This document shows, one piece after another, positions 1 through 53,800 of a DNA stretch of 64,000 bases. Origin of the DNA: Proteromonas lacertae (lineage: Eukaryota); contig NGBS01000009.1 of NCBI GenBank assembly GCA_002245135.1, forward strand, positions 1-64,000, read 5' to 3'. Below the pieces are notes generated by a model. That model was given only the letters and a program-made list of their open reading frames with translations. It was not told the DNA's origin and did no database searches. The stretch's first letter is position 1. The number at the start of each line of letters is the position of its first letter. The position numbers and the translations under genes were made by a program.

Positions 1-10
1 CGTTGTGCTA

Positions 11-3000
11 TTATATTTGTAACATTTGTTGTAGTTGTTGTGGTGTTGCTGTGTCTGCATTTGTTTCATAATCAGTTCTTCCAGTTGGTTTACTTCCTGG
101 TGGAGATAATGGCCTGATTTTATTGGCTAAATGAATTGATGAATATACATCCTTTTTCATTCCTTCTTTTTCTTTATTACTACTATTATCTGAAGATGGT
201 TTCATTGATGAATATTCTCTTACTATTTTATAGAATTTTGGAGTTATTATAATCAATGTTATTCCAATATTAATCAACACTATTCCTATACTCTCTAATA
301 AGAATTTAGCTGCTGGAGATGATGTTAATGTCATTCAATAGCGAAGTATAGAACAAAACACACAAATAAACATCCAATACATGCTGTTAATGTGTTTGAA
401 TCATTATAATCATCAACACAATTTCTAGTTGTATAGGAATAGTATAAACCTAATACAAAGATAAATAATAGGAATATAAAAAACACTGCATCATATACAA
501 CTGATCTATTACATGTTGGAATATAATATGAAACTAAATAATTACCTTCATCTGTTGAAATTTTTTCTTCATATTTCGAGAATGGATATATTAATCCCCA
601 TATTAATGATAATACCACAAATATTGATAAATAAAAAACAATCTCATAAATACTTCTCATTATTTATTCTTAACCTTTTCATATCTCTATTGTTATAAAC
701 TGCATGAATTCTCCAAGTTCTTAACACAATTATACAAGAGTAATTCAATAATAATAGATAAAAGATTGCTTGAAATACCATACACGTTCCATCACTATAT
801 TGAGATATATTCATTGGAATGATTGACCATAATATTGTACCACTGAATAAGAAATATATTACAAATGTATGACTTGCTGCTCTTATTATTTTGAATCTTC
901 TGAATTTAATTATAAATCCAATTACTATATAAATTGCTATTGAAACTAGTACCATTACTACTATCACAGCTATTAAACTATCACTTGTAATTCATATCTT
1001 AATAATAATGGTCCAACATTACATTCTGCTACATCACCATAATAAACTTCTGGATGTTTCATTACAGTAAATTTCGTATCATCAACCAATACTGGTATTC
1101 CTGACATACTTAATTCGGCTAATTTATTACTTGAATAAATTGATTTGTTACTGTTCCTTGTTTTTCCTGAGGATGTATCTATTAATATTAATTGACTAGC
1201 TCTTCGAATATAATCTAAGGAAACTACATTATCATTCACATCTAAACCATCAGATTTCATCAGATTTCTACTTTGAGTATATGAATTAATGAATATTTTG
1301 TAAATACTTTCAAAATCAGATATTGACTGAGATATAACATCAATTTTACCAACATTAGTATTTACATAGTTTTGGAAATTAATTGAGTTTATATTGGTAT
1401 TATCATTCAAATATGTTCTAGTTATTATATTTCCATACAATCTTGGCATTTTATCTGTTCCTAATTCATATTCATCAACATAATAAATAATTTGAAGTGC
1501 TCTAATATAAGATATTTGATTGATGTAAATAAAATCTTCAAAAATGTTAATTCATTACCATTTAATGAGTTTAAAATTAGTATTGTATCATTCCTTATAA
1601 ATTCTTTTATAAACATTACTGTTTCATTTATTAGTTTAGTTCTTTCACTATTTTCTATACCATCAAATACAGGAATTACATATGTTTTAACAATTACACT
1701 ATCTTCAATATATTCTTTTACATTTTTAGTTATATAAGCTATCAAATCATCCATATATCCACTTACAACCATACTTCTTGTATTAATAACATTATATTCT
1801 TAAATCCTAATCTTTGACTGAATTTCAATGATGGTCAATTCTACTCTTCATTGATGCAGAAATAAAGAATATATATTTATTACATATTGGCGGATATACA
1901 AATACAGTCGAATAAATCAATTTGTATTGATTTTTCTTTCATAATTGAGTAATAAATATCTAATCACATCCATAGAATTTGATGTAAATAATATCTTATA
2001 TTCATTGTTAACTTCAAACAAATTATCAAACACTAACTTGTCCTTATTTTCATCATTATAATATGGAAATACTTTAAATTCAATATGAACATTTGTTGAA
2101 AATTGAACTTGTTATTATCTCTAATTAATGAATCTATTAATATAATAATATATGTGATAATTTCTTCTGTTTTTCTTTAGAATAATCAAGCAATAATCCT
2201 ACTTTAACATTTACCTCTCTCGTTGTACATTTCTCAATATATTTATCATAATCTCTTGGTGCTAATTGATTAGTTACATCAATAATTCTTTTTCATTTCA
2301 TACTCACAGTTAAATTCTGTATGGAAATAATACCTTTGAATGTATAAATCACCTCCTAAATACATCGTTACTCCACTGTTAGAATATTGATGATTTATCA
2401 ACTGAGTGATATAATCTCTCGAAGTATAACTAGATAATAATAAATTTTTATCATTATTACTAGTGAATCTGTTTAAAACTAACTCTAACATCTTAAATGC
2501 TGAAAATATATCTTCTGTTGAAGAAGAATAGTAATTATCATAAGGGAAATAATCTTTACAATATTTTTGAAATGTTTTTGTTCCATTTGATAAGAATGAA
2601 TATGAAGAATTCTGTAATGCTGGTGTATAGGTTACTATTGATTTTACATCACATAAATATTTTTTATAAGAACCATGATTTGGTATTTCCATTAATGAAA
2701 ACATATTGTATATAATTATATCTTTTATTTTTGTCAATAATCCTTTCATATATATACTTATATTCTTCTCCAACATCATTTTTATATATTGAAACAATTA
2801 TATAACACTTATTCTTAGATGATTTACAATAATCATAAATACTATTATATAACTTTTTTTCTCACTCTCATCTTTATATAACTCATCATATACATTGAAT
2901 TGTTGATAATAAAGGTTTGAATCATTCAAACTTTTATCAATATGATCTATTAACAATTTAGACATGGGTGAATAATTATATAATATAATCACATCATTAG

Positions 3001-6000
3001 ATTCTCTTATAAATGATCTTTCATGTAAATATGAAATAATTGCTAATGAATTAGTCATATGAATGATATTATCTCTACATACTATTTGAGTATCATATCC
3101 AACTGTTAAATATAGTGTATCATTATAAAGATTAAGTTTGGAAACATCAAAAAATCCAAAAGATGTAAATACTATATTAATCTTATTCTTATGCATTTCA
3201 TCTAAATACTTTTGTAGTTCATTTACATCTCTCTTTTTCATATTATGTGATTTTACAGCTAAATATGTATTACTACTGAATGAATTTACATCATTATAAT
3301 CATCTACTAGTTTGACTAACATATAAACCGTTGAATTCCATTATAATAATCTTCAATAGTTAATGGTAATATCAAACCAATGTAATATAAATTCAATTCT
3401 TTATTACCTGAATGACTATTCATATCATCATTCCACATACAAGCTGTAAGTTTATTATTATTTCCATTATTAACACCATCAAAGTCATAATTATCATCCA
3501 TACTAAATAATAAAGCTGCATTTGGTGAAAATGAATATTCTATCAATTCTCCATTGAATTCATAATAAGACATTGTAATTGATTTTGTCAAATAATTGTT
3601 TCTTTGCATATATATTGCATTTCTATTATCCATTCCTTCATTTTCATAAGAATAACACTTAAAATTATATACATGTTCTCTAAAATGTTTATCATTTGGG
3701 GTTAATTGCCATATTCTTTCAAATTCGTACCAGAAATATAATATGTTCAATTCTGATACAACATCTCTACTAAGTTCTTTATCCAGCAATAATGAAGTAT
3801 AATCAAAATCATACAATACTTTGGAAATATAATTTTCTAAATCATCATCATTATTAGAGTCATATTTATAGTTATTCTTCTTACTACTAAACTTTCCATT
3901 CAAATTCCAGAAATGAGGTAAATATTTATATTTCATTGGTTTATTTTCAGGATGTTGAGACATATAAAATATATTATTTACATCTATTGAATTGGTTGTT
4001 AATAGTGTATTATTTATATAATCAGAATGTAATCTAAATCTTCAATATCACTTGAATCCATCATTATTGCAACTTTATAGTCAATAGATTTTTCTAATAT
4101 TCCATTCAATTCATTCTTACTTTCTTTAATATCATCAAATGTCATTGAATATATTTCTGGAATTAATAAATACTGTCCTGTCTTCTCAAATATTGATGTA
4201 ATTTTAACATAATCATTATCATGAATCACTACTAATATGAAATATCTAAATATATTATAAAATGTTTCTAAAACAACAGGAACATTACTCTTTGGCACAA
4301 ATGAACCATGATAACATTTTCAAAACAAAATGTCTCATTTACTTCATTGATTATTGTCACTTTGAAGTTTTTTTCCTTCCACCCAAATTGATAAACTTTT
4401 TCAAACATTCACTTGGTAAGTATAAATAAACAGTTGAATCATATTTGAATTGTTTAATTATATTCTCGAAATCATCACATTCTGATTCAGTTCTTAATAA
4501 ATAGCTTCTTATATCAAAATAATCGTTTGTGTCTTTTCCTAATATATTAAATCGTTCTTTAATTGGCATGGAACATTCCATAAATTTCATAATCTTTGTC
4601 ACTTCTAATCATTATTACTGTTTCTATTACAATTACTGGAACAGTATAAATATATTCTTCTTTTGTAAAATCACACATTTTCCCTTGGTTCAATTCCCAA
4701 TTAAATGCATATGGATATTCATTGAAATAATACCTCTTTAATATTTCAACTGTATTATTTGCATATACTCTAGCCAATTGATAATAATTGAAAATGTTAT
4801 TATTTGATGCTAATTGAGTTATTCCTTCATGACTATCAAAATCAGAATAATAAATACTTGATAAATTGAATTGAGTTATTTCATTGTTTCTATTCATAAC
4901 TATATCTGAATCTTTCATTTTTTGGAATAATTTATTTAGTATTATAAATGCCATAAATATATTTGACATTTGATTGAATGGTTCAGATATCATTGAGTAT
5001 TCATATAAGTACTTTAGAAACACTTTGTTCATATCACCTTCTTCATTATTCTTATTAAAATAACCACCTATTATATCAATTCTATCTTTCAAATAGAATG
5101 GCATTGTTTTAACATTCTTTTCTGTTAGTAATAATGCTATTATTCCCCACTTATCTCTATCCAAATTTCTTATATAAAACTCATATAAAACTGATTGAGA
5201 ATCTCCTAAATCTGTTGCTAAAAATATTACTCCAGCAAATTCCTCTATTACTCTCATTGAATCATTCATTTCTGTTGCATTTGACACATCAACACTAATT
5301 GATGGAGATGGACGATCTAGTCTGTCTTTTAACAATTTCTCCAATATATTCTTTACATCAATCGTTGATTGATCATTTGAATTATAAAATATATATGATA
5401 TATTAGTAAGATATCCATTCAATGCATAGTAATACATTGAATTGAAATAATATTGACTTGGAACTCCAGATGTTATAATTACGTTCTTATAACATATTTC
5501 GCCAGTTACTGGTGTAGTAATAAAATATAATATATCTTTATGATCATCTTTTATCTTATTGATTATTATCTTCATACATTCTTTTGAATTACCACTTATA
5601 ACTATCTTAAATCCTTCTTCTATCGCTTGATCAATTAATGATTCACATGTTGTTGTTGGTGAACTTTCTATATCAAATAACTTGTAAGAGATTTGATAGT
5701 TTTCATTTTCATTCTGTACATAATTATATCCTGCAATGGCAGATAGATAATTTGAAATATCATAGTAATTATCATTATGACTAATAGAAAATACCAAAGC
5801 AATTTTTATTTTCGGTACTTTTGTAACTCCTTCAATATTATCCAATATTCTATTCTTTGTATGTTCTACAATCGGTTGTAAATCACTAACTTCACATCTT
5901 TTACCACTGTATGGAGGAAATGGTTCAGATTTAACTGGCGATGAAGATTTAAATACAGTTTTAAACTTCAATGTAACATTATCACTTTTATCAACTTCTT

Positions 6001-9000
6001 CTAATTTTATGAAATAGAAATATCCTTGAAAATAATGATTCTTTCCTATATAAATCTACTCCAGCTGGTGTTACAATAGGAATCTTATAAAATGTATAAA
6101 TCAATTCACTAACTTCATTACTGTGTATTGTATGTGTCGAATATCTTAAGAACAATGGTATAGTATATAAATTATAAGTTAATCTAGATAGAGTTATATT
6201 TTTACCATATTTGTCATAATATCTATTCAATATTTCATAAGTTATTGAATTATCTTCTCCTTCTTCTTTAGCTTCAGTTGGATTAAAGATTGTGAAGAAA
6301 TAAGTATCTATTGTTGGTTGTACTTTATCACTTGCATCAAATGTGATTAAACCTGGATCAATATTTAAACATATAATTTTGCTTGAACTTCCAACCACAT
6401 TATAAGAATATAACTCTGTTAATAATGAACTAATTTGATTTGGAGATACAATTGTAACAATACAACTATTGTGACTTAAATATTGATTTAATGAACTTAA
6501 TATATTATAATATTGACTAGTATTATCACTAATTGCCAGTTTATAACTAATTTCCATTCCATTTTCTACAAACATATTCTCATATATTTCTAACAAAGTT
6601 TTATGTTTTTGAGTAACACTATATAACATTAATATATTCTCACAATTATTGATCATATATGATAGTCCAGGTTTCATTGACTCATAGATACTTCCACCAT
6701 AGAATAATATATTATTATTATTACATTTTGCTATATATGTATTACTTGCTACAATTAACAATATTGAATTATCATTTTCAATTTCATTCGATATTATTGT
6801 TATTAATGGATCACTTAAATAACCAATAAATATTCTAACACCTAAATCCATCAACTGTCTGAATGATATGATGAAATCTGTTTCATTTGTGTTGGATGTA
6901 TATGTTAATGATTTATAACTAGCTGTAACTCCTAATATACCTCCATATTTGTTGTTTATATTATCAATTCCACTTTCAAAGGATGTTTTTACCATTTCTC
7001 TTTCAATTCCAAATGTTTCATCATGTATTAAACCTAATGTGAATAAATTGATGGGTCTTAAATCTGGTTCATTTTCTTCAGTGAAATTACAATAATTTCT
7101 CATCACATTTGAATCAACATATAATATGTTTGATGTTTTAGTTGTTGAAACATAGCTAATTACATTAAACTGACTAATCTTTACTACAACTGAAGGTAAA
7201 CGTTCATACAGATTAGATTTCATAGAATTAATTCCACTTACAGTATCAAATTGTGTAGTTAAGCATTGTTCTTTGTAGTGTATATAAATCATATGGATTA
7301 TGAGATGTGATCTGATCATGGAAATTGAAAAATGCATCAGCTGCTAATAACTCATATATATAAAATATCTTATCTTTTCTATAAATTGTATGATATATAT
7401 TATCAAACAAATTACTTCGTTCTGTAGATAAGAAGAAATCAAATATTGTGTAAAAATAAATATTGTAATTTCTAGCGGATATAGCATTATCATTAAAGAA
7501 CGATGTTAATGCATAGAATTGATAATTTCCTCCTAATTGCATAGTAGAAAAAACATTCATAATTTGATTGGTTTTTTCTGCAATATTATATGTATTAAAT
7601 ACTATAATATTACCACCTGTTGGCATAAATGAATATATTTCTTTGATTATATTATCTATTGAAGCAGTATTATTTTCAATATCAATATATATTACATTTT
7701 CAGAAAATGAAATTGATTCTTTTATATTGTTAATGATTTTCACTTTATTTGGTATATCACTATGTAGAATTACTAATTTTCGATTTGTAGTATGAACAAA
7801 GTTATACATTGTTGTAATCAACAAATCATTTGCAGAATATGTAAATACTCTTGGACTACATTTCTCCAATGAATAATAATATCCAATATACCACAATTGC
7901 ATATCATATTGATCTAATTTCTTAACAATATGATCCATCATAACTCCTCCTAATACTCCAAACACATGTTTGATATTATATTTAGTATGAAATTCTTCAA
8001 ATATTTGACTTATCTCTTCTTCTGTATTTGCATGTTTTACTATTCCTTCATATTGAAATTTTGTATCAGCAACATTATTAAAATAAGTTCCCAGTGCATA
8101 TATTATCCTAGAAACCATTCCAGATTCATATTTTAACTTTTCACATCTTACAAACAACATACCAAACCTTACTTTAATTCTATTGGTGATGAATTCGTTT
8201 GTAACATTACTGTTTGAAGCAGATGAAGTAGAAGAAGTTGTCAATATTGTATCATATTTACTACAATCACAAACTTGACTATTTTCCTCAATAAACATTA
8301 TTGCAGGTAATGGATATTTAAAACTACTTGTAGGAAAAAAGTTATTATCACCATTTAAATCTACATATATTATCATAACAGTCAAATAATGAGATAATTG
8401 GTTACTAATTGAAAATGTCAATGGAGTATCTAAACCGATATTTAATTCAGTTTTTCTCATATTTATATCACAATTCTTTTCTTCTAAACAATTTGAATTC
8501 ATATTTATCGATAAAGTCAACATTGATTGTGCATAAAATAATGGATATAATAGATAATTATAATCATAATAAATATCTTCAAATTCTGTAATACGATCTA
8601 AAACAACATTAACAAACTTTGATTCACTTTCTTTTATATGATCTGAAATAAACATAAAATTATCTAATTTTGGATTATGTATTGTTTTAAGGCTTTTAAA
8701 CTTCATTAATGATGGTGTATATGAAGGAAATGGAAGTCTTGATGATTGAAATTCTGCTCCAACTTCTAATATTTTTTTATCATCATCTAAATTCACTAAT
8801 ATTCCACAATTACCATCTGGAAATTGAGTTTTTATATCTATAAATATATCACTTATTGATTTTGTATTGATTGAAGTTCTAACTACTTTCATATCTGTTT
8901 GATCTAACTTCTTCAGTGTTTTTATTATGTATTTATACATTTCATCATCATTCTCATCGTCTATATCAGTTATTATGTAAAAACTTTTCAATTTTGAGTC

Positions 9001-10133
9001 TAAAGCATAATAGATTACAGGAAAATAGAGTTGAATCAAATTGAAGTTTGTATAGAATAGATATGGTGAACAATCATTTTTCTCATTCAAATACAAATCA
9101 AATGTTATTATTTTCTTTCTACTGGTTATTTCTATCAGTTTCTTCATCTTCATGTAATTATCACCAGCTAAGAATGCGATTGGATTATATTTCTCTATTA
9201 ATTTTTCCACTTGAGTCTTTAACTTCTCAGGATTATTACTCAATTGATATTCTATTACTCTATATCTATACTTAGTATCATAAAACGAAACAGACATTAA
9301 ATTAGTCACTGTAAATAATGAATTCATTAACAATCGAGGAATTGTTTCAAATATACTGATTATTACTATAGTTTTACCTTCTTTTGTATAATTACTATTA
9401 TATTTACTCCAATCACATACACAATTCTCATTTACTGTTGATGAAGTGTGAGGAACTGGAAACCATTCATAATTGTAAATTATCTTCTTTATTTCTTGAA
9501 TAATGGTAAAATCTTTTGGATCAACTGTCTTGCATAATTTTGTTATTAATTGTAATGTATTTTCTCTTGTATATTGTACTTTATATTCTTCGCTGTAAAT
9601 ATCTAACGATGGTAAAATAGATAGAATATTATCAGGTGTTATTGATGTTAAAGTAGTGAATATTTGATATGCAATCTGAGTAGATAAATATGCAAAATAT
9701 GCAATTTCAGTCATCAAGTTGTTTGGACTTATTATTTTGTATGTATCACATATATGATTATTATTTCCACATTTACCATCAAAATACATTATAGTGTAAA
9801 AATCTTTCCACTATTAAAATATAACATATATAATATATATAAATACAGAATTATCATCAACATAATCAATATAAGATAATCCCATTATATAAACTTTAAA
9901 TTGATTTTCACTATATCCTTTACGACTGTATTGTTTCATAAATTCAGATGAATATGGTGGAGCTGTTATTGATATAATTAATATATTATTCTTTGTCTTA
10001 TATCCATCGATTGTTGTGATAATACTTTGAACAGAATTCTGAATATTATCCAACTGAATTATTAAAGATTCTAACAGAGTATTATTCTGTTTGATTGTAT
10101 TTTCTGCATATGTTTTAAGTGTTTTTGCAGCTC

Positions 10134-10168
<35 letters not shown>

Positions 10169-11723
10169 TTTATACTCAGTTTTTGCAGTAATTAATATCA
10201 CATCTTTCCTATCATTTTCCAAATTCAACATCAAATTTAAGATTGATGGAACAGTTAAACCTGTATTAAATACTCTTGGATGACAATACAAACCTGAAAG
10301 ATATCCGATATTGAAAATGACAGGTAAATCATCATGATTTTCATGATAGATATCTAATTGAGGTATATCTTTGTTTATAATATTTCCATGTGAATAATAA
10401 ATAATAACCTTTATTTTATTCTCTACATAATAATCATATTGTTCAGCAGGAGTATGTGAGTAATTTGAATCTACCAGTAATATCAGCCTTTTATTACCAA
10501 CTTTCTCAAGATTATTTGCATTTGCAGATATATATACACTGTTGAATATGGGAATGATATATTCAGCTTTCAATGACCTATCAGTAATTAATCCTATAAA
10601 AAAAACATCTTCTACCTCTAATTCACCTATTTCATTACATCTATTCTGATCTATTACACTAAAATCGTCATATGCCTCTAAAGGAAAGTAATTTCTGAAA
10701 TTGTGTATAAATTTGATATCTCCATTTGCTTGCACCTCTCCTAAATAGGAACTTCGCATAAAATATTGATTTGTATATAAATATATAAGATCCTCTGAAA
10801 CATATGCATTTATTCTTTTAAATGTCATATTTTGAATAAAAACCGATACAGGTACTTTGTATAAACTATCTATACACTGTAAAATCATTTTCAGGAATAT
10901 TCCACTGATATACAATGAATCAGTTAAATATTCACCTGAAGCTAGATTTAATGCTGTTAAAAATGCTTGATTCTCAGGAGATGGATAATTCATCAAATAT
11001 CCTGAATATATATAAGCACCAGCGAATAGAGTAGTATCTTTGTGAGTAAGGTATTCATCAGCACTTAGAACAGCTATTTTATACCCTTTAGCAGCAACAT
11101 TGTATTGGTTAAAATATTGGACTATTTTTATCTGTTCATCATACTTTCTATAATAATCAGCAATTGTAATGGCAGTTGTTGTATGTTCTAAGTTCTTCAA
11201 ATATTTTTCAGCATCTGCAATCTCCATTCTATTGTTTAAAATCTTTATACCAAGCAGCGTGTAAGTTCTGACCAATCTATTATAATCATCTTCATTATTA
11301 GTCAATATAATTGATTTATATTCACTATTAACTATAAATGAGTTGGCTATGATAATAATAAAGAGATTAAAGCATACCTTGATAATCTAAATTTCTGATA
11401 TTGATTGAATTAATGAGATTAGGGTTACACATTGGTTCAATATATTGATTAGCGACGAATAAAATATTTGACGAGTTTGAAGTGTCTATTAGGCTTTCTT
11501 TTTGAGATAAAAGAATGTTTATCTTGTGTCGTGTAACTGGCTCATTATATACATACTCTAACTTATCACTAATATTAAGATAATCTGTTAATTTGAAGAA
11601 AACTGGCTGAAACTCTGCTTCCGTCATATAGGACTCTAATACTACATTAATAGTAAGTCTGTCACTCAAGGCGACTAAATGGCCATAAAATATAAATATT
11701 ATAATATATATCTTGTAGAACAT
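11..11723 (-). CDS. Giant class C (7tm_3, GABA-B/GRL-like) GPCR with ~9 tandem type-1 periplasmic-binding (UrtA/AmiC-like) domains; ~3,800 aa; 3 mini-introns near 5' end plus several frameshifts
   Basis: Signal peptide MFYKIYIIIFIFYGHLVALS. ORFs join via GT-AG introns (~11348-11378, ~10132-10171, ~9811-9846) and 1-nt frameshifts. C-terminal 7TM has class C motifs KFRRFKIIRAASHTF, C..F..LNYSCIIVLRTWRIHAVY, YYSYTTRNCVDDYNDSNTL. Ectodomain repeats carry GLYCHPRVFNTG / KNDCSPYLFYT / EKCSPRVFTYS and GAYIYSGYLMNYPSPENQAF. Confidence 0.85.
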
Positions 11724-12306: not shown

Positions 12307-14073
12307 GATGAAATGATATTGAAAATATTGGAATTGTATGATTTAATTAATAAAGAAGAGATTGGAGAATTAATAAAAGTGAGTGAAGAATATTTGAAAG
12401 AAAATGGATATAAATATTTGAATGATGGTATGAATTATATTGAAATTATTATTGAATAGAAAGATTGTTATATAAATTAAAGATAGAAAATTTAGAGACA
12501 ATATTAGAAAGTGAAAAACTGATAATCAAAAATGAGAATTGGTTATTAATTAGATTAATGAAATGGTATAGAAATGAAGAGAAGAAAATAAAAGAAGAAG
12601 AAGATAAGAAAGAATTGAATAAAGACTTCAAAATACTTTTATTAAAATCAATTCATTTTAAAAATCTAAACATAGGAGAAATAGAACAATCCCTATTGAA
12701 TGAATTGAAAATGATGGAAATGAATGAATATTTATTAGGAATGAAGAATAAAGTAAGTCATAAGAGTTTGAATATTGATATTAATGATGAAAGAACAGGT
12801 GATTTAGTATTGAAGTATTATAACAATGAAGAAGAAAGAATTGCAAGAAGAAGATTTGAGAGTGTTGAAGAATGAGAAAACAATCTCAATGTTATTAAAT
12901 AATGAAGATATAAAAATGAAAGAAATTGGATTATTAATAGTAATAGAAAGTGGAATTGTTTTTAAAAGTATTAATAAGTCTCTATAATTAAATTTTCATA
13001 GTATCTAGAAAATTGAAAAGAAATATATTTCTTCAATTAATAAATGAATACAATAGTATAGAAACTGGTAGAATAATAAAATGTTTATGTTTGTTTGTTG
13101 ATAATATAAAACACATATCTACAATAGAAGATATTTGTGGAAAAGAAATTCTTTTCAAATTATTAAACTATAGTTGTTATTATTCTAAACAGGTCAAAGA
13201 ACTAATAATTAGTTTTATTTATGAAATGAAATTTAACGAGGAAGAAAGAGGAGAGATGTTACAGCTAATAAACAAAGAAGAAATAAAAAAAGAAGTACTA
13301 TCAAAAAGAATAACATTTTTTGCATATTCTCAACCAGAGTATAAATTTTTATAAATGAAGAAGTATTAATATATCCAATATTTGATGGATCGAAATGTGA
13401 GTTTTCAATAACTCCTTCCTTACCTGATGGACTAAATATAGACAACAAAAAAGGAACAATTTATGGGAAAATGGATAAAGTTTTAGAAAAGAGAGAATAT
13501 GAAATAAGTTGTAAAAATATTCGAAATGAAAAGAAATTCAAAATATCAATACAAAATATTAATATAAAATTCACAGAATTATACAAAAGTAAAGGAATCT
13601 CTATATCTAGTAATGGAAATATAATTACGAATATACGACCCAAATTAGATGAATTTTGTTACTTAAATTTGAAAATGGAAAATGGAGTTTATCATATCAA
13701 ATATAAATTCTGTCTAAATCAATCATATTATGATAGGATCATTTTAGGTTTATCAACTAATAATACATATTCTGCTCATGATTTGTTAAATCAACCAACA
13801 ACATGCAATTATTTTGCATGTAAGCAAAAAAGTCAGGATATTATCTATTTTTGTTATATTGGAACAGTTGTTGCTTCAAATCCAAATTTCAATAATCATG
13901 GAGATGGTTCAATTTATGAAGTGATTGTTGATATGAATAAAAGAGAATTTTGGATTAGTCATAATAACTCACCTCCTGTTTTACTTGTAAAAGATTTACC
14001 TTCTCCATTATATCCTTATGCTTCAGTATGTACTACTGCAATTGAATTATTATCAGTTTCTCATCAATATTAA
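12307..14073 (+). CDS. BACK-like helical domain + putative Ig (He_PIG-like) domain + B30.2/SPRY-like domain protein; frameshifted, 5' end uncertain (possible pseudogene)
   Basis: LYKLKIENLETILESEKLIIKNENWLLIRLMKWY resembles BACK. FSITPSLPDGLNIDNKKGTIYG (~13400-13470) is a He_PIG-type motif. GDGSIYEVIVDMNKREFWISHN...LPSPLYPYAS is a SPRY-type C-terminus. Confidence 0.55.
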
Positions 14074-31593: not shown

Positions 31594-32767
31594 ATGAGAA
31601 TATATTACATTACTTTTTATAATTTTATCAATATACGGAAGTCAATGTCCAAATCTTTGTAGTGGACATGGCACATGTAATTCCAATGGTATGTGTAATT
31701 GCTTATCCTCAATGGATGGAAGGTGATTGCTCACAAAGTATACCTATTAATCAATAATTATTTCTCTAGGAACTTGTCCATATGGTGTTAGGAGTAGCTG
31801 ATCCAAATGGTCATGAATCAAAACACGATTTAGAATGTAGTGGTCAAGGTATCTGTGATAGAAGTACAGGATCTTGTCAATGCTTCAATGGTTTTGGAGG
31901 TTCATCCTGTGAGAGAGTGCTATGTCCAAATGATTGTAACGGACATGGTGTTTGTACTCAAGCCAATTATTTGAGTATTGATACAGACACTTATTATTAT
32001 GATCAATATATTAATAGTGATAGAATTGCTAAAGGTAATGATTTTAGTGAAAAATGGGATGGGAATGTGATATATACATGTTTATGTGATCCAGAATATA
32101 CTGGATTTGATTGTGCACAGAAGAAATGTAAGTTGGGATATCAACAGACGAGTTATTGTGATTCTCCATCACAGTATGTTCAAGAAATACTAATTGTAGG
32201 TAAAACTGTTACAGGAGGACAAAATCTAATTAGTGGATGTTTGGCTTATGCGAAATTATACTGATTCATTTGGTAGATCTTGGATTACTAGACCATTTAA
32301 TATATTCAAAGAAACTAATAAACCAACAGGTGATAAAATTACATACGATAATAAATGTGAATGATAAATCAAAATTCCCTTCATTTAAAGAAGCATTAGA
32401 ATCATTACCTGCTGGAGTTATTGATATTGAAAGTATTGATTTTAAACCTTTTAAAACTGGAGATTCAGCATTATCATTACAAATTAAATATGGAAATCAA
32501 CAAACTGGAAAACAAAATGCAATTCAAATAATACAAAACTCAGATTTTAACAAAGGTGATGGTTTTGATGATTCAAATCTTCCTCATGGTATTGTTGAAT
32601 TAAAAGATAATTATCCACTTGATGCAACTATTTTATACCAAGAAACTACATATATCCCACCAGTTGAATGTGCGAATAATGGTTATTGTAATCGTCAATC
32701 AGGTGTGTGTGAATGTTTTGATGGATTTTGGGGGGATGCATGTACAGAGATTGTCCCAGTCATGTAA
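31594..32767 (+). CDS. Tubular mastigoneme (Ocm1/Sig1/Mas-like) EGF-repeat protein, paralog 1 (one intron, frameshifts)
   Basis: Signal peptide, CPNLCSGHGTC, LECSGQGICDRSTGSCQCF.G..GSSC, CPNDCNGHGVC, WD...YTCLCDPEYTGFDC, terminal ECANNGYCNRQSGVCECFDGFWGDAC. Confidence 0.8.
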
Positions 32768-33122
32768 TTTATTTTATTATAATTGTATTAGAATGTGTTT
32801 ATTTTTAACATTTCAAAAATAGGTTAATGAAAAAATACCCCACAAAATTTTGATCAAGCCAAAACTTGCCAACGGATTTCTTTCATTTTTTGATTTTAGC
32901 ACGAAATTGAGTATATTATAATATAAAATCCTCTCTTTACTTTTACTGCACTAAATTCTATTGATAGAGCTTATAATATCCTTGTTTATTCACTTACATT
33001 CATTAATCTCGTTGTTATAACTATTTATATCTATTAATTATTCTCAATATTATTTAAATCTATTAATATATGCTTTATAATGATCAACCATTTATTATCT
33101 ATTTTTTAGATTAATAGTAGAA

Positions 33123-34355
33123 ATGAAATATATACAAATATTTTTATTGATATTAGCTGCTTATGGAGCTCAATGTCCAAATCTTTGTAGTAGTCATGGT
33201 AGTTGTAATGCAAATGGTTTGTGTAATTGTTATCCAGGATGGACAGAAGGTGATTGTTCTGCAAGAACATGTCCATATGGTGAAAGAATTGCAGATCCAG
33301 ATGGACACAATGAAGAGAATTACTTAGAATGCAGTGGTCAAGGACATTGCAATAGAGTATCAGGTGAATGTGAATGTTACCCAGGTTATGCAGGTTCGGC
33401 TTGTCACAGAACAGAATGTGTAAATCAATGCAGTGGTCATGGTGTTTGTACAAAAGTTGGTTATTTAGGAATTGAATATAATACATATTTTGATCCATAT
33501 TATTCTGATGAGAATAATAGATTGAGTGATTATAATAGTTGGGATAAAGAGAGTATGTATACTTGTGTTTGTGATAAAGAATATACTGGTTATGATTGTT
33601 CACAGAGAAAATGTGCAACTGGTTATAAAGAAACTAGTGAGTGTGATGTTTCTTCTATTTATACACAAACAATTGCATTATCAAAAAGAAATACTGAATT
33701 GGATGGTTGTTTAGCTTATGCAGAATATACAGATACATTTAATAGAACTTGGTATACAAGACCATTTAATATATTTAAAGATATGACAAATGATGAATAT
33801 ACATCATTAAACAATATTGCAAATAGGAAAGTTAAGTGTGGTAGATATACTCCTCAATTTCCATCATTATTAGAAGCATTGAAAACTTTACCATCAGGAA
33901 CAATTGATGTAACTGAAGTTAGTTTTGAAGTAAGTAGTACAAATGTATTTATTCATATTACATATGGAACTCAACAAACAGGAAGACAACAACCAATTAG
34001 AATTATTACAGCAGAAGATGAACCATTAGCATCAGCTTTAGCTGGAGATGCACAATATTGTGCAAATGTTCCACAAGTCAAACCAATTCAAGAATATAAA
34101 AGTGGTAATTCTGATACTTATAAAGATTTAATTGCAAAATACAAATGTCCTGGTAAAAATGGTAATCCTGACAAATGTAAAGCTGAAGATTTTAAAGCTA
34201 ATTATCTTCATGCCTATGCACTTCCAGTGAAAACAACATATGTTCCACCATTAGAATGTGCCAATAATGGATTATGTGATAGAACATCAGGTTTATGTCA
34301 ATGTTTTGAAGGATATTATGGTTTAGCATGTACTGAAGCTACTCCAGTAGTTTAA
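33123..34355 (+). CDS. Tubular mastigoneme (Ocm1/Sig1/Mas-like) EGF-repeat protein, paralog 2 (intronless)
   Basis: Same architecture: N-terminal EGF cluster, YTDTFNRTWYTRPF motif, single C-terminal EGF. Confidence 0.85.
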   Translation: MKYIQIFLLILAAYGAQCPNLCSSHGSCNANGLCNCYPGWTEGDCSARTCPYGERIADPDGHNEENYLECSGQGHCNRVSGECECYPGYAGSACHRTECVNQCSGHGVCTKVGYLGIEYNTYFDPYYSDENNRLSDYNSWDKESMYTCVCDKEYTGYDCSQRKCATGYKETSECDVSSIYTQTIALSKRNTELDGCLAYAEYTDTFNRTWYTRPFNIFKDMTNDEYTSLNNIANRKVKCGRYTPQFPSLLEALKTLPSGTIDVTEVSFEVSSTNVFIHITYGTQQTGRQQPIRIITAEDEPLASALAGDAQYCANVPQVKPIQEYKSGNSDTYKDLIAKYKCPGKNGNPDKCKAEDFKANYLHAYALPVKTTYVPPLECANNGLCDRTSGLCQCFEGYYGLACTEATPVV

Positions 34356-39769: not shown

Positions 39770-41808
39770 ATGGATGGAGATTTACAAGACGCAATACAGG
39801 ATGCTCAATATTTTGGAGCTTTATGTGATCCAGTTCCAAGGTATATTGGATGTTTATATATATGTAGACCTACTACTAAACTAATATTACCTACAGAAGA
39901 AGAAGCCAAAGCCTTTGGCAAGACAATGGAAGATGTTACTCTGTTTTCAATAGTGAAAGAGCCTGTAGGATATTATCTTGTATATTCTTTTCGTTTTATT
40001 TATTAGTGGAAGAAATTTGTAGGTCAAGATAAAAAAGAATTAGGATTTATCGCATTTATAGAGTGGACTTATGATTTTAAAGTAAATATTTCTATTTATT
40101 TAATTTCAATTAGACATGCACTTCAAGAAGACGTAGAAATAAATATGGCAAGAAGATATATGATAAATTTATTTCAAGTGGAAGTTTTCTTGATACAAAC
40201 CTTAGAAAGGAATTATATACAAGAGTATAAATATATATATTATAATTGTTTTTAATAGTGTTTTCGAAATGAGCATGATTATCGAATATTAGACCTAGAT
40301 ATGTTACAATTCCAAATAGATTATCGAAAAGCAAAAGAAGACTGTAAAGTATCATCTGAAAACATCATTCCGTGAAAAAGGAGGAGAATGTGAAAGAATT
40401 AAGCAGAAATTACTAAGTATAGACAATGGAGATGATAAACGAAACAATCAAAATAGATCAGCAGCTAATGTAATGTCCAATTTAACGCCATCAGGCAATA
40501 CATCCAATAATGCCAATACTAATCAACAACAACAACAGCAACCAGCAACCACAACAACCTCAGCCAAGTAGTCATCATCATCACAGTGTTATTAATCCAT
40601 TACCACCTGATCTATTTGATCCATTAACCGCATTAATATTCGATAGATTGAGAGTTAATTATTTTGATGATTTTAAAAAATCTTTTAGATATACACTTTA
40701 TTTACAAATTAAATTATTAGAGAAAAGAAGTGTAGGTGAAAGAGACTTTGCAATACTTCGTGTGCTAGGTAGAGGTGGATTTGGTATGGTAAGTGCCTGT
40801 AAAAAGAAAGATACTGGAAGATTATACGCTTTAAAAACAATGAGTAAAAAACGAGTAAAAATGAATCATGCTGAAAGAGTATGTTTAATTGAAAGACGTT
40901 TATTAGCACGTATTAATAGTCCTTTTGTTACAAATTTAAGATATGCTTTTCAATCAAGAGAAGATCTATTTTTGGTAATAGATATTAAATCAGGTGGTGA
41001 TTTGAGTTATCATTTGAGAAGGAAGAAATTCACTCAAGAACAAGTTGTATTTTATGCAGCACAAATATTATTAGGATTAGAACACTTACACTCAATGGGA
41101 ATCATCTACAGAGATATGAAACCAATGAATATAATGTTGGATAAGAAAGGAAATGCGATTATCACAGATCTTGGACTAGCCGTTGAAGAATCAACTCATC
41201 CTGCTAGTTTGTGTGGTACAAGAGGATATTGGGCTCCAGAGATTATCTTATCCAGAGAAACTCACCGTCCTTATGATAGAAGATGTGATTATTGGAGTTA
41301 TGGTTGTTTGATATATGAAATGTTAACTAGTAAATGTCCGTTTAGACGAACTGAATGTTTGAATTTTGATCCTGATCGACATAGATCGATTGATATTGCT
41401 ACTTTACAGTATGATCCACCTTATAATCCCAAGTATTTTACTACATCTGAAACTAAGTCATTTTGTAGAGGTTTATTAACTAGAGACCCAAATCAGAGAT
41501 TAGGTACGAAAGGTATTGAAGAGATTAAAAATCATCCATTTTTCGCTAAAATTAATTGGCATGTAATTCAGTCACTGCAAGCTGATCCTCCTTATCACCC
41601 TGATAGAGATATTAATGCTGCTTCACAAAGTTCTATTGGTGAATTCGAATCAATTCACACAGAATTGACTGAAGAATGGCAACAACAGTTTTGTGAGTGG
41701 GAGTTTGTTAATCCAATTGCTTTACAATGTGAGATAACAGAATTGATGAAACATGAAGAAACTCTTGGCGCAATAGCACAACCTGCATCATGTTGTAACA
41801 TCATGTAA
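39770..41808 (+). CDS. GRK: G-protein-coupled receptor kinase (N-terminal helix + RGS/RH domain + AGC kinase), C-terminal CaaX
   Basis: MDGDLQDAIQDAQYFGA (GRK alphaN-like), RGS-like EPVGYYL...FI, DFAILRVLGRGGFGMVSACKKKDTGRLYALK, YRDMKPMN, TDLGLA, GTRGYWAPE, INAASQSSIGEF, ends CCNIM. Confidence 0.9.
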
Positions 41809-45569: not shown

Positions 45570-47191
45570 TTATATTAAGAATTTTCCATCGACATTAGTC
45601 TTCATTGTAATATTACCTTCTCCGAATTGATTTCTGAAGAAGTAGAGTAATCTAGCAGCTAAGTAAGTCAATGTAGCAGATAATGCTTCATTTCCCCACC
45701 AATAATAAGTAATTGACCATAATAAAGCATGGAACAACATTAAATCATATTCAATTCCCCAAAATAATAATCCTATTTAATTAATATAAATGAGTATTAT
45801 ATACTTGAATGTCTTGAAGAAAACAACATTGAATTAGAATCAGGTACCCACCAACATTGTTCTTCTCTTGACATATCAGGTGGAAAATGAATCATTCTTT
45901 TCCACATTGGAAATGGTTCAAATATTGTTCTTTTCACTGGACAGTTATTCTGTTCAACGTATTCTTTAAGAAACGCCTCTATTTTTGCAACTAATTTGGG
46001 ATCTAAAGGTACTCTACCATTTCCACACAATGGAAAAGCTCTAAAGAAACCACCCATTGGACCAGCTTGTTGCATTTTACTTCTCAAATCATCATCAAAC
46101 TTATGAAAATAACTTTCTTTAAAATTCTTTGATAAAAATATTTCATACACTTGAGAATCTTTTCCACCTGGTAGATTTTCTCCAGGCATCTTCAAATGCT
46201 GTAGCAATGTCTCCATATCTGTATCAGCATGTTGACCTGGTAAATGACAGTGGAAATAATAACCATGATATTTCTCATCCATTATAAACAATGAGATTTT
46301 TGCAACTGTACATAAATCTATGAATAGTGATTCTTCTGGTTCCTCAATGAATCTTTGCTATATAAATAAATAAATGAAATAAATAAATAAAATATATTAA
46401 ATATACATAAACAGCATAATTCCATATCAATTGTAATGAAGTAACTAAAAACCATAAGAATAATATCATATAACAATGTAAAAACATATTCACAGGAATT
46501 GTAGGATCATCTCTGAATGCTGGTTCTTGTGTAGCCATCTTCTTAAAACCAGCTATTTCAATTAAAAACCATATAAAGAACAATGAAAACTCAAAGGAAG
46601 TTCTTCGCTTTGTTTGTAATTCATTGAATTCATTGGCTACAAATAGTTTCCTCCAAACACTTACTGGGATTTGTGGAGCATCATCATCTTCTATAATAAT
46701 AATAATAATAATAATATACTTGATTCTGCTATATGATATGTATCATATGGTGTTTCCCAATCAATTAGAAATATATCACAAGTGCATTGTTGATATACTA
46801 AATAGATGACTCTAATAACTTGACAAACTGTAGCTACATATAATATACATTCAAATGGATAATACTATAATATATAATAAATATATATAATAATAATATT
46901 TATACATTACTAAATCTTTCAACATCATCAATATACGGTGGTAAAAACACATATGGAACATCTTGAAATTTAAAGAAGCAAAACCAATAAGTACCAAATA
47001 CAGCTAAATAACAACCAGCGCAGAATGGACCAGCTAGCGATATCAATAGTACAGCTGCTCTAATAATAGATTCAAATGATAGAGTCTCTTCTTCAGTAGA
47101 TCTTGCATTGTTTCGCTGTTTTCTAATATAACTATATACCCAATAGAAAAACATTACCACCATAAATATCCAAAACCACTATATATTGTTT

Positions 47192-47241
<50 letters not shown>

Positions 47242-48781
47242 CAGCTGTTTGAAAGTTATTCCATGTTGATAAATCATGTTCATATTCTACTTTAATAGAG
47301 AATTCTTCTGTACCTGCATTACCACTAGCTACTTCACCATATTCAATTCTTACAACTGGTAAGTATATTCTTTCTATAATTAACAACAATAATAATCAAT
47401 AACTATACGTTTATCATCTTTTCTTGCTCTAACTCTAATAGTTATATCTTTAGCATATCTTATTGCTTGAACACCCATAGCAGTATTGGCTCCTAAATTA
47501 TCAAATAAAGTAAATCGATAAACATAAGTGGGTGATTCACTCCCTTTTACATTTATTCTATTACCATCTGAACCTCTTAATTCTTTATTATATATTGGTA
47601 CTTTAGTCCATCCATTTACATTTCCACCTCTCACATTCAATATATATAAATCATAAAATAAATTATCTCCTCTATTGAATAATCTACTAACATCACATTT
47701 ATATCGATAATCAAAACCTGAACCATATCTTAACCAAACCGAACCTAAATCTTCATCAACACTTCCTTCACTAGAACAGTAGAAAAATTGATTCTTTAAT
47801 TCTTCAAAACTAACTAAAGTACCATTCAATGTATAACTTGCTAAACCAAACCTTAAATGAGTACTACCAGCTGCATTATTTCCTCTTTTAAATGTATAAC
47901 TTGTTTCTACTTTATTACTAATATCTAAATCAGTAGCTACAGCTCTAATTGTGTTGACTAATGATGATTTTAATACAGCAGCACCACATATTGTATTCCC
48001 TTGGAAATTGCCATAATAATTGGTTAATGTACATAAATTTGATAATGTATTACACCATTCAGGTTTTGAAGGTAATTCTATATTTGGACACATTGAATAC
48101 GAAACATCTAATAAATCACTAATAGCTTTAGATTGATATGTACCACCTATGATTGCATAATTGGTATCTCTTACTGTAATTTGACTTTGAAGTGGTGTAT
48201 AACAGAATTTCTTTGTATAATAACCATATGAATTTGAATAAAGTGTTAGACCATTGTCACAGACACAGTTACCTACTGTTGTATCATATCTCATATTATC
48301 TCCATCACATATTATTAATTCTGATGTATTTCTTACTTTGTGGACTTTTGTTGGATCGAATGTGAAACATTCTACTGTATCTAGTCTTATTCCTCCTTTT
48401 TCATATAATGGGAGTTGATTATCGGCAGTACATGGAGATTGAGATGGATTTATGCAGAATGACTGATCTGGTGTTGGATTTCCTGTTGGACATACTGAGC
48501 ATTTTGGATTCGTTGTGTAATCCCAATATGTTTCATTCGCACATGAATAAGATATGGAATAACTATTACCAAACATATCAACTTTATCTTGTGATGGTTC
48601 CTAGAATAAGTTACATATTATTAATTAGCAATACTGCATTATCAGGTTTTTGGACTGTATATAGACAAGAACCTAAATCTATTGGATTTAGAACATCGCA
48701 TAAAGGAGGAAGTGTTTGACTGTATGATTTGCTTATACAGCACATCAACAATACTATTATACATAATTTATTATATGACAT
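45570..48781 (-). CDS. TMEM67: Meckelin (transition-zone MKS module)
   Basis: Signal peptide, Cys-rich N-terminus, CNTLSNLCTL, YRFTLFDNL, FGTYWFCFFKFQ, SVWRKLFVANEFNELQT, FIDLCTVAKISLFIMDEKYHGYYFH, C-terminal NLKTNVDGKFLI*. Confidence 0.92.
47198..47236. repeat. (TA)n microsatellite inside a meckelin intron
   Basis: Uninterrupted TA run, making this intron about twice the usual length. Confidence 0.85.
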
Positions 48782-50877: not shown

Positions 50878-53800
50878 ATGAATATTGTAACAATAATTCT
50901 TGTTACATTATGCATCAATATAGCTTATTCAAATGGTTGTATATTTTAATCAACTTTATTGTTCTTAGCTGTTCCAAAATTAAATACTCCTAATGTGGTT
51001 CTATCAAGTATTACTAATAGTTCTATGGTTTTACATTGGTACGCTCCTTTTAATTTAGAAAATACTCCTACTGAATATGAAATACAATACAGTAAATTGG
51101 GAGATGATTGGGAAAATGTATATGGAACAATAGGGAGTATATCAGAACCTCAACATGAAATCCTTTGGATTGAAGTAAAAGGTTCAGATTCTGCTCCAAT
51201 AAATGGTTCTTTCCGTCTATATCTCAATTATTATACCAGATATCAACAGCCTGTTCATTTCGTTACAAATGAAATACCATTTGACGCAAAAGCAGATGAT
51301 ATAAAAACTGAATTAGAGCATCTAACAGGAATAACTAATGTTCATGTAATAGAAGGAGTTCCAAAACATAATTCCATAGTAGAAGGTAAATCATCTTGGA
51401 TAGTGATATATGACTATAGACATGATATTATCGGTGGAAATATTGTACCGCAATTACAAGTATATGATGAATCGATGAATACTAATGATGACAGAGAAGA
51501 TATACCACCAACATTAAAAGGAGATATTCAATGTATAGAACTATATACAGGAAATGGTAAAGAATTATCAGGAGAGTTTTCATTACATATCAACGGACAT
51601 GAAATATCAGAAATATTAGTAAATATAACAGCAGAAGAATTAGAAAACAAATTAAAAGGAATATTTCCAAATGTTAAAGTAGAAAGACCAAATGATTATT
51701 ATTCCGTATTAGAGTATTATGGATATGACACTGATTTTCAATCTTGGTGTATAACATTTTCCACTGAAAAATCTATTCTTCCAATCTTAATCCATCCACC
51801 ATCTGGTAATAATGGAATAGTAAGAATAGTTCAAAAATATGGTGAATATAAAGTAACGAATGTTCAAATCCATGAGTTAAGAAGACAAGGAAGTAATAAT
51901 ACTTTATGCTTTGGAGATTGTTATCAATTAATTGATAATTTATATCCTAATTCAGGTTATATTTATAGATTAAAATATAAAGTTGAAGTATATTATATTA
52001 TATTCATTTTATTATTATTATTATTTTAGACTGATGATTGGTCTGAATATACATCTTCCTCTCAGATATATTATACTCTTCAATATGATGTACCATCCCA
52101 TCCAGTACCTCCATTATTTATTAGTTCAACTAAAACATCAATTAATGTTGAATGTATTTTGTCTAATGACAATGGAGCTAAAATAACAGATATTACATTT
52201 GAGATATCTGATGAAAATGATAGTATTTTATAAATATATTATTTATTTATTTATAATAGAATCATTCATGTGGAGAAAAGCAGAAATTGTTAAGACTAAA
52301 AGAGATTTCTTACATTATACAATTATAAGTATATATTTTTTTAAGTAATTATTTATTTATTGTAATAGAGTTAAATCCTGATAGTAGTTACTATGTAAGA
52401 GTGCAAATGCATAATTCAGCTGGTGCTAGTGATTATAGTAATCCAAGTAACTTAATGAAAACTCAGCCAGATTTACCATTAAATCCACCTAAGATATATA
52501 TTGAATCTGAAAAGACAACTACTTATAGTATTACACTGTTTTGGCTTCCTGTTAAAGATAATGGTATTCCAGTTGATTCATATTCTATTCAATATAAAAC
52601 ACAACCATTTGGTTTTTGGAACAATATTCGTTATGCTGTATCAGCTGTTAATTCAAACATCAAAAGAGAAGTATATATATTCATATAAATATTTTATTTT
52701 TGTACAATAGATACAAACAATTCAATGTAATGTTCCGATCAAAGAAATAGAAAGTACAGACACATTTACATTAGAATTTGGTTATAAATATTCAGTAGAT
52801 AGTATTAAACCAAATAGATATAAAACTAAACCATTATCATTCAAATGTACAGCAGAAGAAATGAAAAATGCATTGAATGCTATTCGTCCTCATTCTATTT
52901 ACCATATTGATAGAATAGTTGAAAACTCGAGATATGTATGGAGAATATACTTCAATTATTATCAACAATCCTTCACACTTCCTTATCCATTACTCAGATT
53001 AAGTGATGCTTCATTTTATGCTTCTGATGAGTATAGTGAATCATTTACATTTATGAAAATTCAAGAAGCAACACCAGCAGTGTTTAAAGATGTTTTATCC
53101 TTAAAAGTGGATGGTTTAACAAATTATACAACTTATATATTCCGATGTAAAGCCAATACAATAGAAGGATCAACAGAGTGGAGTGAAGCAACTTCACCAG
53201 AAACAACGAAAGCAATAACAACACTTCTACCACCATCCAGAATACCTTCCATAGTAATACCAACAATAGCTGCAACTGGAAGATATGCAGCTAATAGAGA
53301 AGATCCTGATTATGTAGGAGGAATTGGAAATGGTGGATCTAAATACAGTAAAGGTGAGAATGGAATGATTGTAATATCAACTTGTAATACTCATGGTCAT
53401 TTAATACCTAAATCATATTATTATTATAAAGAAGTAAATAATGAACCTGTAGTTCAGAAATATAGAGTAAAAGCACCTCCAGGTGTTACTATTGATTGTT
53501 TAGAGATAAAAGCATGGGGAGCTGGAGGTGGTGGAAGTAAAAACAGTACAGGAGGTGGTGGAGGATTTGCATTTATCCAAATGAAGACAAAGAATAATGA
53601 AGAATATGATATATTAGTAGGTGAAGGTGGTTATGCTGGATTGAAAGAAACAGGTGGATTAGGAGGTTGGCCAAATGGTGGTAAAGGAGGAAATGGAAGA
53701 GAAGCAGGTGGAGGTGGTGGTGGTTATTCTGGTGTATTTTACAAAGGTTCTTTAGTAGTAATAGCTGGTTCAGGTGGTGGTGGAGGAAGTACTGATCATT

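Follow-up and report, generated by a model that had tools for sequence, protein, structure and literature searches.

A predicted giant class C receptor with nine tandem periplasmic-binding units related to UrtA

Introduction

Canonical class C G protein-coupled receptors (GPCRs) carry one flytrap domain per chain and are dimeric, and two tandem flytraps per chain occur in trypanosome ESAG4-type adenylate cyclases and in Bordetella BvgS. Class C GPCRs with bacterial-type domains are known from protists and fungi, combining Peripla_BP, Bmp, OpuAC or TctC with 7tm_3 (PMC3251606, PMC3727952, PMC3971589, PMC10445921), and their N-termini comprise up to 1667 aa (PMC3251606), or 730 aa in diatoms (PMC3727952). 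Here we analyze a receptor gene at the beginning of a 64,000-nucleotide stretch of Proteromonas lacertae DNA, hereafter the window, which encodes in this order a signal peptide, nine type-1 periplasmic-binding protein (PBP) units of ~390 aa each, and a class C seven-transmembrane domain (7TM; PF00003). This architecture is well supported, and we have little doubt of it. Class C receptors with a single PBP are already known in protists; what is new is the number of nine units and their origin from the bacterial urea-binding protein UrtA.

A literature search, with subscription papers outside its scope, returned no paper on a nine-unit, multi-unit or UrtA-derived GPCR, and zero for UrtA combined with GPCR. 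To our knowledge, no urea-sensing GPCR has been described, and no search was aimed at this. The architecture figure of PMC3971589 gives Peripla_BP plus 7tm_3 without copy numbers, and a repeat form could hide there.

Results

Structure of the receptor gene

The gene lies on the minus strand, which is coding in this region of ~25% GC, and runs from an ATG at 11723 past base 1 of the window. Removal of three GT-AG introns (31, 43, and 36 nt) leaves 608 stop-free codons from this ATG, past which the frame changes repeatedly without splice signals. A codon-model Viterbi gene model placed false introns at several of these breaks and was superseded by a frameshift-aware alignment to P0001 (this and similar labels denote database proteins related to the window receptor). 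P0001 was the sole match among 4134 candidates when the longest window piece was searched against longer proteins. Its 3387 aa are encoded in one open frame of a 12.1-kb contig. The protein starts with the first Met past intron 3, ends in 7tm_3, and is 68% identical to the window over 3253 aligned residues.

A preliminary description of the same DNA had placed the gene at 11..11723. The start holds, but the stop at 11 is an artefact situated downstream of a frameshift near 43; in the correct frame, the gene exits the window ~117 aa before the point matching the end of the orthologue P0001. The gene model thus comprises 3875 residues within the window, and ~3990 in total by analogy with P0001.

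Evidence for nine units

All nine Cys-centred motifs of the preliminary description are present on the minus strand, within ~10 nt of where it had placed them, as is a further stretch that it had quoted, GAYIYSGYLMNYPSPENQAF. The Cys codons lie at 11429, 10285, 9072, 7860, 6725, 5494, 4327, 3079, and 1884, a spacing of 371-417 codons, and a second periodic Cys (spacing 381-411) closes each of the nine units. The units are only 8-17% identical to one another, as expected from the proposal that they are highly diverged.

Of the Pfam domains anticipated at the outset, PF00003 and, in unit 3, PF13458 (E 8.3e-12) score above their cut-offs, but PF13433 is sub-threshold in unit 1 (E 2e-4) and no other unit of the window ectodomain is detected. 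A profile of unit 6 built from three sequences, which gave no PBP match in the PDB, retrieved 18 proteins from 1.84 billion protein representatives, and all 16 of the new ones carry PF13433. From relatives we built a hidden Markov model (HMM) that excluded the window, P0001, and P0002 but kept P0003, and a stricter HMM that also excluded P0003. These relatives had been found using the window's own unit 6, so that the test is most independent for the remaining units. With P0003, exactly nine matches tile the ectodomain and recover 9/9 units at 14.7-136 bits (best control, -1.5); the strict HMM recovers 8/9 window units at 13-122 bits, whereas none of 20 shuffled or reversed controls exceeds 3.8 bits.

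Structural comparisons are in line with the predicted type-1 PBP fold. A model of units 3-4 had a predicted local distance difference test score (pLDDT) of 57 overall, with unit 4 well modelled, mostly at 70-90. The top four Foldseek matches of unit 4 are UrtA entries, and VIA gave Z ~18 equally to UrtA, other type-1 PBPs, and glutamate-receptor N-terminal domains. By ESM features, window unit 6 and unit 7 of P0003 lie at 0.95 to type-1 PBP clusters. The features of the gene are as follows (bits refer to the strict HMM unless stated otherwise).

11661..11723, minus strand: start codon and predicted signal peptide (~21 aa); basic, then hydrophobic N-terminus, hydropathy 1.84
10637..11660, minus strand: PBP unit 1, ~330 aa, with a short first lobe, spanning intron 1; 34 bits; PF13433 sub-threshold (E 2e-4)
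11347..11377, minus strand: intron 1, 31 nt, GT-AG, within unit 1
9415..10636, minus strand: PBP unit 2, spanning introns 2 and 3; 44 bits in one continuous match across both introns
10133..10175, minus strand: intron 2, 43 nt, GT-AG, mostly a trinucleotide microsatellite, within unit 2
9811..9846, minus strand: intron 3, 36 nt, GT-AG, in frame, with two stops inside; the open reading frame (ORF) of P0001 starts at the first Met downstream
8263..9414, minus strand: PBP unit 3; PF13458 above cut-off; 58 bits
7089..8262, minus strand: PBP unit 4; 59 bits; pLDDT mostly 70-90; best Foldseek match UrtA; VIA Z ~18
5894..7088, minus strand: PBP unit 5; 84 bits
4673..5893, minus strand: PBP unit 6, the best conserved; 122 bits; ESM 0.95 to ANF_receptor/Peripla_BP_6 clusters
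3439..4672, minus strand: PBP unit 7, the most diverged; 0.5 bits, 14.7 with P0003, whose positional orthologue is at ESM 0.95 to PBP
2227..3438, minus strand: PBP unit 8; 13.4 bits, 28 with P0003
1021..2226, minus strand: PBP unit 9, membrane-proximal; 13.0 bits, 33.7 with P0003
226..990, minus strand: class C seven-helix domain (PF00003), from Pfam and alignments, with four frameshifts in the window copy
1..225, minus strand: cytoplasmic tail, exiting the window; the alignment to P0001 reaches base 3 stop-free after the frameshift near 43

Trinucleotide runs like that of intron 2 mark further introns in the window.

The membrane domain

The C terminus belongs to class C as proposed. Two window pieces exceed the Pfam cut-off of 33.5 for 7tm_3 (46.8 bits, E 3.8e-12; 36.3 bits, E 6.4e-9), and P0001 scores 90.4 bits over profile positions 8-251. 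The 7TM of P0001 and that of P0002 each show seven hydrophobic segments. Class C hallmarks, as listed in PMC3727952, are retained: the basic motif of transmembrane helix 3 (TM3), the cysteine pair of TM3 and extracellular loop 2 (ECL2), the acidic residue before TM6, and the PK motif of TM7. The closest 7TM in the PDB is that of GABA-B2 (E 6e-11). Unit 9 is joined to TM1 by a linker of ~12 residues with no cysteine-rich domain, and the NCD3G domain (PF07562), a mark of mGluR, CaSR, and T1R, was not found in P0001 at E values up to 10.

A gene for a G protein-coupled receptor kinase (GRK) lies at about 39770-41808 (plus strand). Its best PDB matches are GRK2, GRK5, and GRK1 (E 1e-77), ranking ahead of other AGC kinases, and the match includes part of the region preceding the kinase domain. 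Its presence shows that the host possesses receptor-desensitising machinery. GRK-like genes have been reported from Holozoa, Dictyostelida, Heterokonta, and Haptophyta (PMC3971589), which makes a stramenopile host plausible.

Related proteins

P0002 shares 32% identity with P0001, and the two are colinear between unit 4 and the 7TM. P0003, like P0002, is a colinear homologue, and units 5-9 cluster by position with strong support. The full design of nine units plus 7tm_3 is present in P0005 (3745 aa, cut at the N terminus), P0037 (4080 aa), and P0038 (3909 aa), the latter two with an N-terminal leader. All three are very unlike the window in composition, and their contigs scarcely exceed the frames, which would fit transcripts. 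Units of P0005 and P0038 pair in register at 1 and 5, weakly at 4 and 9, and out of register at 6-8 and 3-6. Those of P0037 partly cluster among themselves, and its stalk differs. Across groups, the 7TMs are 16-30% identical.

A second AT-rich group with like repeats, a dozen further clusters at <50% identity, comprises P0004, P0006-P0015, P0017, and P0018. P0008 has a signal peptide and eight units, and is then cut inside the ninth. No ORF of this group reaches a 7TM, and several stop at about one common point in unit 9, which suggests that they share an intron and that the family has expanded in AT-rich hosts. In-register homology of the window receptor with the P0008-type family is clear in unit 6 only, which was the search query, and partial in units 4-5. 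P0039 has UrtA units in alternation with degenerate ones and with Ephrin_rec_like repeats, followed by a membrane region that is not 7tm_3; here the UrtA module is part of another receptor type. Two metagenome scans and one genome scan for the loci of P0001-P0038 yielded no confirmed locus.

Kinship with UrtA and the urea pocket

Judged from their sequences, the window units are descendants of bacterial UrtA, in agreement with the kinship to UrtA and AmiC proposed earlier. This assignment follows from PF13433 in P0002 (73 bits) and P0003 (84 bits), the Foldseek result for unit 4, and a profile chain to P0005. Nothing exceeded its cut-off in NCBIfam, in which the UrtA family TIGR03407 reached 12.2 bits versus a cut-off of 492.75. 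In P0005, P0037, and P0038, each intact unit is a copy of mature UrtA, and the copies follow one another head to tail. These units share 46-58% identity with cyanobacterial UrtA and 38-46% with the closest of seven proteobacterial UrtAs; the window units are 11-19% identical to UrtA.

Both periodic cysteines are present in 9/9 window units and in the solved cyanobacterial UrtA. Among the best 80 of 593 UrtA genome matches, all from cyanobacteria or without a name, the two are found in 80/80 and 75/80 proteins, one scan pattern having contained the first cysteine. They are jointly absent from unit 8 of P0003, unit 9 of P0005 and P0038, and two proteobacterial UrtAs. Because they tend to be lost together, we infer a disulfide between them.

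In trees, the eukaryotic array units form one clade (support 0.986; 98.7 in a fast tree), in which the window group is at risk of long-branch attraction. The fast tree held 42 of 67 rows, leaving out the units from AT-rich hosts, two P0039 units, and ten bacterial rows. The preliminary description had envisaged a horizontally acquired PBP amplified in tandem. The descent from UrtA bears this out in part, but on the evidence of the tree the acquisition appears to be old and common to unrelated-looking eukaryotes rather than particular to the window's lineage. We considered a cyanobacterial donor but do not claim one: the bacterial sister branch of the array units has no support, only seven other bacterial rows were sampled, and the UrtA of Thioclava also has both cysteines.

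Urea is bound in UrtA by W120, S122, Y141, Q144, E146, Y190, N246, and S274 (PMC10392092). All eight residues are found in 20 of the 27 units of P0037 (8), P0038 (7), and P0005 (5), which are thus likely to sense urea, whereas unit 9 has 1/8 in each of them. The window units retain 0-2/8. Urea is therefore an unlikely ligand, and the window receptor is predicted to sense other molecules. Between the window and P0001, 50 of 63 pocket positions are conserved (42 expected), compared with 8 of 48 for P0002 (14 expected) and 7 of 36 for P0003 (9.5 expected). Conservation above background towards P0001 and below it towards P0002 and P0003, a pattern that specificity positions would be expected to show, lends weak support to lineage-specific ligands, and would also be compatible with relaxed pockets. 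The earlier notion of a multi-ligand antenna likewise has weak support.

Discussion

We think it probable that the receptor is a chain of coupled clamps, urea-polyvalent in the relatives and diversified in the window lineage. Each unit would be stapled by the disulfide between its two periodic cysteines, and neighbouring units would pack in a defined way, such that closure of an outer unit could be transmitted down the array. Defined packing is likely because a model of a tandem pair of P0037 units attained a pLDDT of 86.9 and a predicted template modelling score (pTM) of 0.82, compared with the ~0.5-0.6 that two equal domains in free orientation would give. Among the matches listed, no PDB chain spans both units of this pair (TM-score by query <=0.47). 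The ancestor may have been a polyvalent urea sensor, and in the AT-rich window lineage each position would have evolved by drift towards a ligand of its own or towards a structural role. Unit 9 could be a transducing or dimerising base, as its position ~12 residues from TM1, the lack of a cysteine-rich domain, and the invariable loss of its pocket suggest. Class C receptors generally function as dimers, and output would pass through a G protein or GRK/arrestin, probably from a dimer.

A wider proposal, which we put forward tentatively and as possible rather than probable, is that these proteins constitute an undescribed giant GPCR family of microbial eukaryotes, in which nine copies of UrtA form a semi-rigid array. 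Free-living members would be cooperative polyvalent urea sensors with up to eight sites and the ninth unit as transducer. In the expanded window lineage, each position would have been retuned to a different solute, one receptor integrating many inputs.

Alternatively, the receptor may be real while the units of the window lineage no longer bind small molecules, the ectodomain acting as an extended stalk or as an adhesive surface for the sensing of contact, force or macromolecules. Such a role has precedents in the non-binding flytrap domains of GABA-B2 and in the N-terminal domains of ionotropic glutamate receptors, which VIA places level with UrtA for unit 4. It would also account for the loss of the urea pocket in 9/9 window units with retention of the disulfide cysteines, for pocket positions that are unconserved relative to the more distant P0002 and P0003, and for pocket residues that vary freely per position in the parallel P0008-type family. 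We nevertheless consider a mere stalk unlikely, given the above-background pocket conservation relative to P0001, the working-looking pockets retained by relatives of the same design, and the position-specific, conserved character of units that lack the homogenisation often seen in plain spacers.

Several points weigh against the chain of coupled clamps and the nine-unit design that underlies it. A BLAST self-comparison of P0001 shows no internal repeat, and in profile comparisons just 8 of 36 unit pairs exceed the best of 144 shuffled controls. Unit 7 fails with the strict HMM, scoring 0.5 bits in the window copy and 10.7 bits in that of P0001. The window structure model is poor overall (pLDDT 57), and its input alignment included UrtA-like relatives; the pTM of 0.82 had no control and comes from the relative P0037, not from the window. 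Pocket positions in the window were mapped from alignments at 11-19% identity, and their excess conservation is modest. The 7TMs of P0005, P0037, and P0038 share only 16-22% identity with those of the window group, which is no more than GABA-B2 does, so that descent of the entire nine-unit design from one ancestor is not demonstrated. Finally, both the expression of the gene and the attribution of its frameshifts to assembly error rest on the orthologue P0001.

As to these frameshifts, the alignment to P0001 places 23 of them between 7263 and 43, which might indicate that the receptor has decayed to a pseudogene in the window while remaining intact in related species. We regard such decay as very unlikely. 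There are no in-frame stops in 3244 codons. With 6.4% of random substitutions creating a stop, ~7 stops would be expected if each of 23 neutral indels were accompanied by 5 substitutions. The test depends on this assumed rate; with 2 substitutions for each indel, zero stops would occur with a chance of 5%. The breaks climb steeply towards base 1 (0 in 11723-7264, 2 in 7263-4601, and 21 below 4600; Kolmogorov-Smirnov p 2e-6), and the aligner called 16 of the 23 single-base losses. Identity to P0001 in 1-kb bins does not fall in the broken part (0.67-0.80 below 5 kb versus 0.62-0.70 above), and codon-position GC is unchanged there. Because P0001 is a single open frame of 3387 aa, the frameshifts are likely assembly or sequencing errors that increase towards the contig end.

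That the stretch holds several neighbouring genes, some encoding secreted PBPs and the last a conventional receptor with one domain, is scarcely credible. No database protein spans window units 1-2 plus the remainder, and exons 1-3 are joined by the intron model alone, but P0001 reads from the end of unit 2 to the tail in one frame, unit 2 crosses introns 2 and 3 with a continuous profile match, the window ectodomain has no internal hydrophobic segment >1.8, and P0037 and P0038 are single-frame whole proteins from N terminus to tail. The earlier claims of one gene, of nine units of ~390 aa, and of an N-terminal signal peptide (by hydropathy only) are upheld.

Elsewhere in the window, the ciliary transition-zone gene for meckelin (TMEM67) is situated at 45797-48600 (minus strand), with PF09773 in two pieces, and argues for a flagellated organism. 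Low GC and short introns had suggested Blastocystis, a candidate dropped because meckelin points to a flagellate; a transcript-end motif of Blastocystis was not enriched in the window (8 matches versus 5.8 expected). Blastocystis introns are 30 bp long (PMC5608401), and those of the window receptor are 31-43 nt. Upstream of the receptor, an ORF at 13345-14073 (plus strand) gives a weak, sub-threshold match to the immunoglobulin-like domain He_PIG (E 6e-4) and is divergently oriented. In two tandem genes at 31770-34355 (plus strand), teneurin-type EGF repeats lie on either side of a central domain that both genes share. A large surface protein is probably encoded by a long gene or cluster at 50950-56319 (plus strand), which contains fibronectin-III, ALK/LTK-type glycine-rich, and Kelch domains.

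The importance of the design lies in the recurrence of the count of nine in three distant proteins. Nine flytraps per chain raise the questions of how closure of a distant unit reaches the helices and whether the sites act additively. A named candidate ligand, urea, is supplied by the relatives whose pockets are intact, and P0005, P0037, and P0038 are better experimental targets than the window gene. If true, the proposal would show protist sensing of a main nitrogen source and a bacterial transporter subunit turned into a eukaryotic receptor, of which the window lineage would illustrate a later step, the divergence of every module.

Comparison with known systems

Among animal receptors, the window receptor most resembles GABA-B (GABBR1/2), with which it shares a PF00003 7TM including the TM3 basic motif, the TM3-ECL2 cysteines, and the TM7 PK motif, as well as a type-1 PBP next to TM1 without a cysteine-rich domain; mGluR, CaSR, and T1R, by contrast, have the NCD3G domain. 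Unlike GABA-B, mGluR, and CaSR, which have one flytrap, it has nine, amounting to ~3,500 extracellular residues. Its units are of the UrtA/Peripla_BP_5 type and not of the ANF_receptor type of animal class C GPCRs. The fusion of a bacterial-type PBP to 7tm_3 is shared with the protist and fungal class C GPCRs, but there are nine units here, and neither UrtA nor tandem arrays are mentioned in the available parts of the papers on those receptors (PMC3251606, PMC3727952, PMC3971589, PMC10445921).

The units resemble UrtA (PDB 8HIC, 7S6E, 7S6F, and 8TG1) and AmiC (1PEA) in their fold and length, in having both cysteines, and in the C-terminal tail. UrtA is a single soluble subunit of the UrtABCDE importer, whereas the window units are fused to a 7TM, at 11-19% identity and with 0-2/8 urea residues. 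The ESAG4-type cyclases and BvgS, finally, carry two modules, with a cyclase or a kinase as output, and the window receptor has nine modules and a 7TM.

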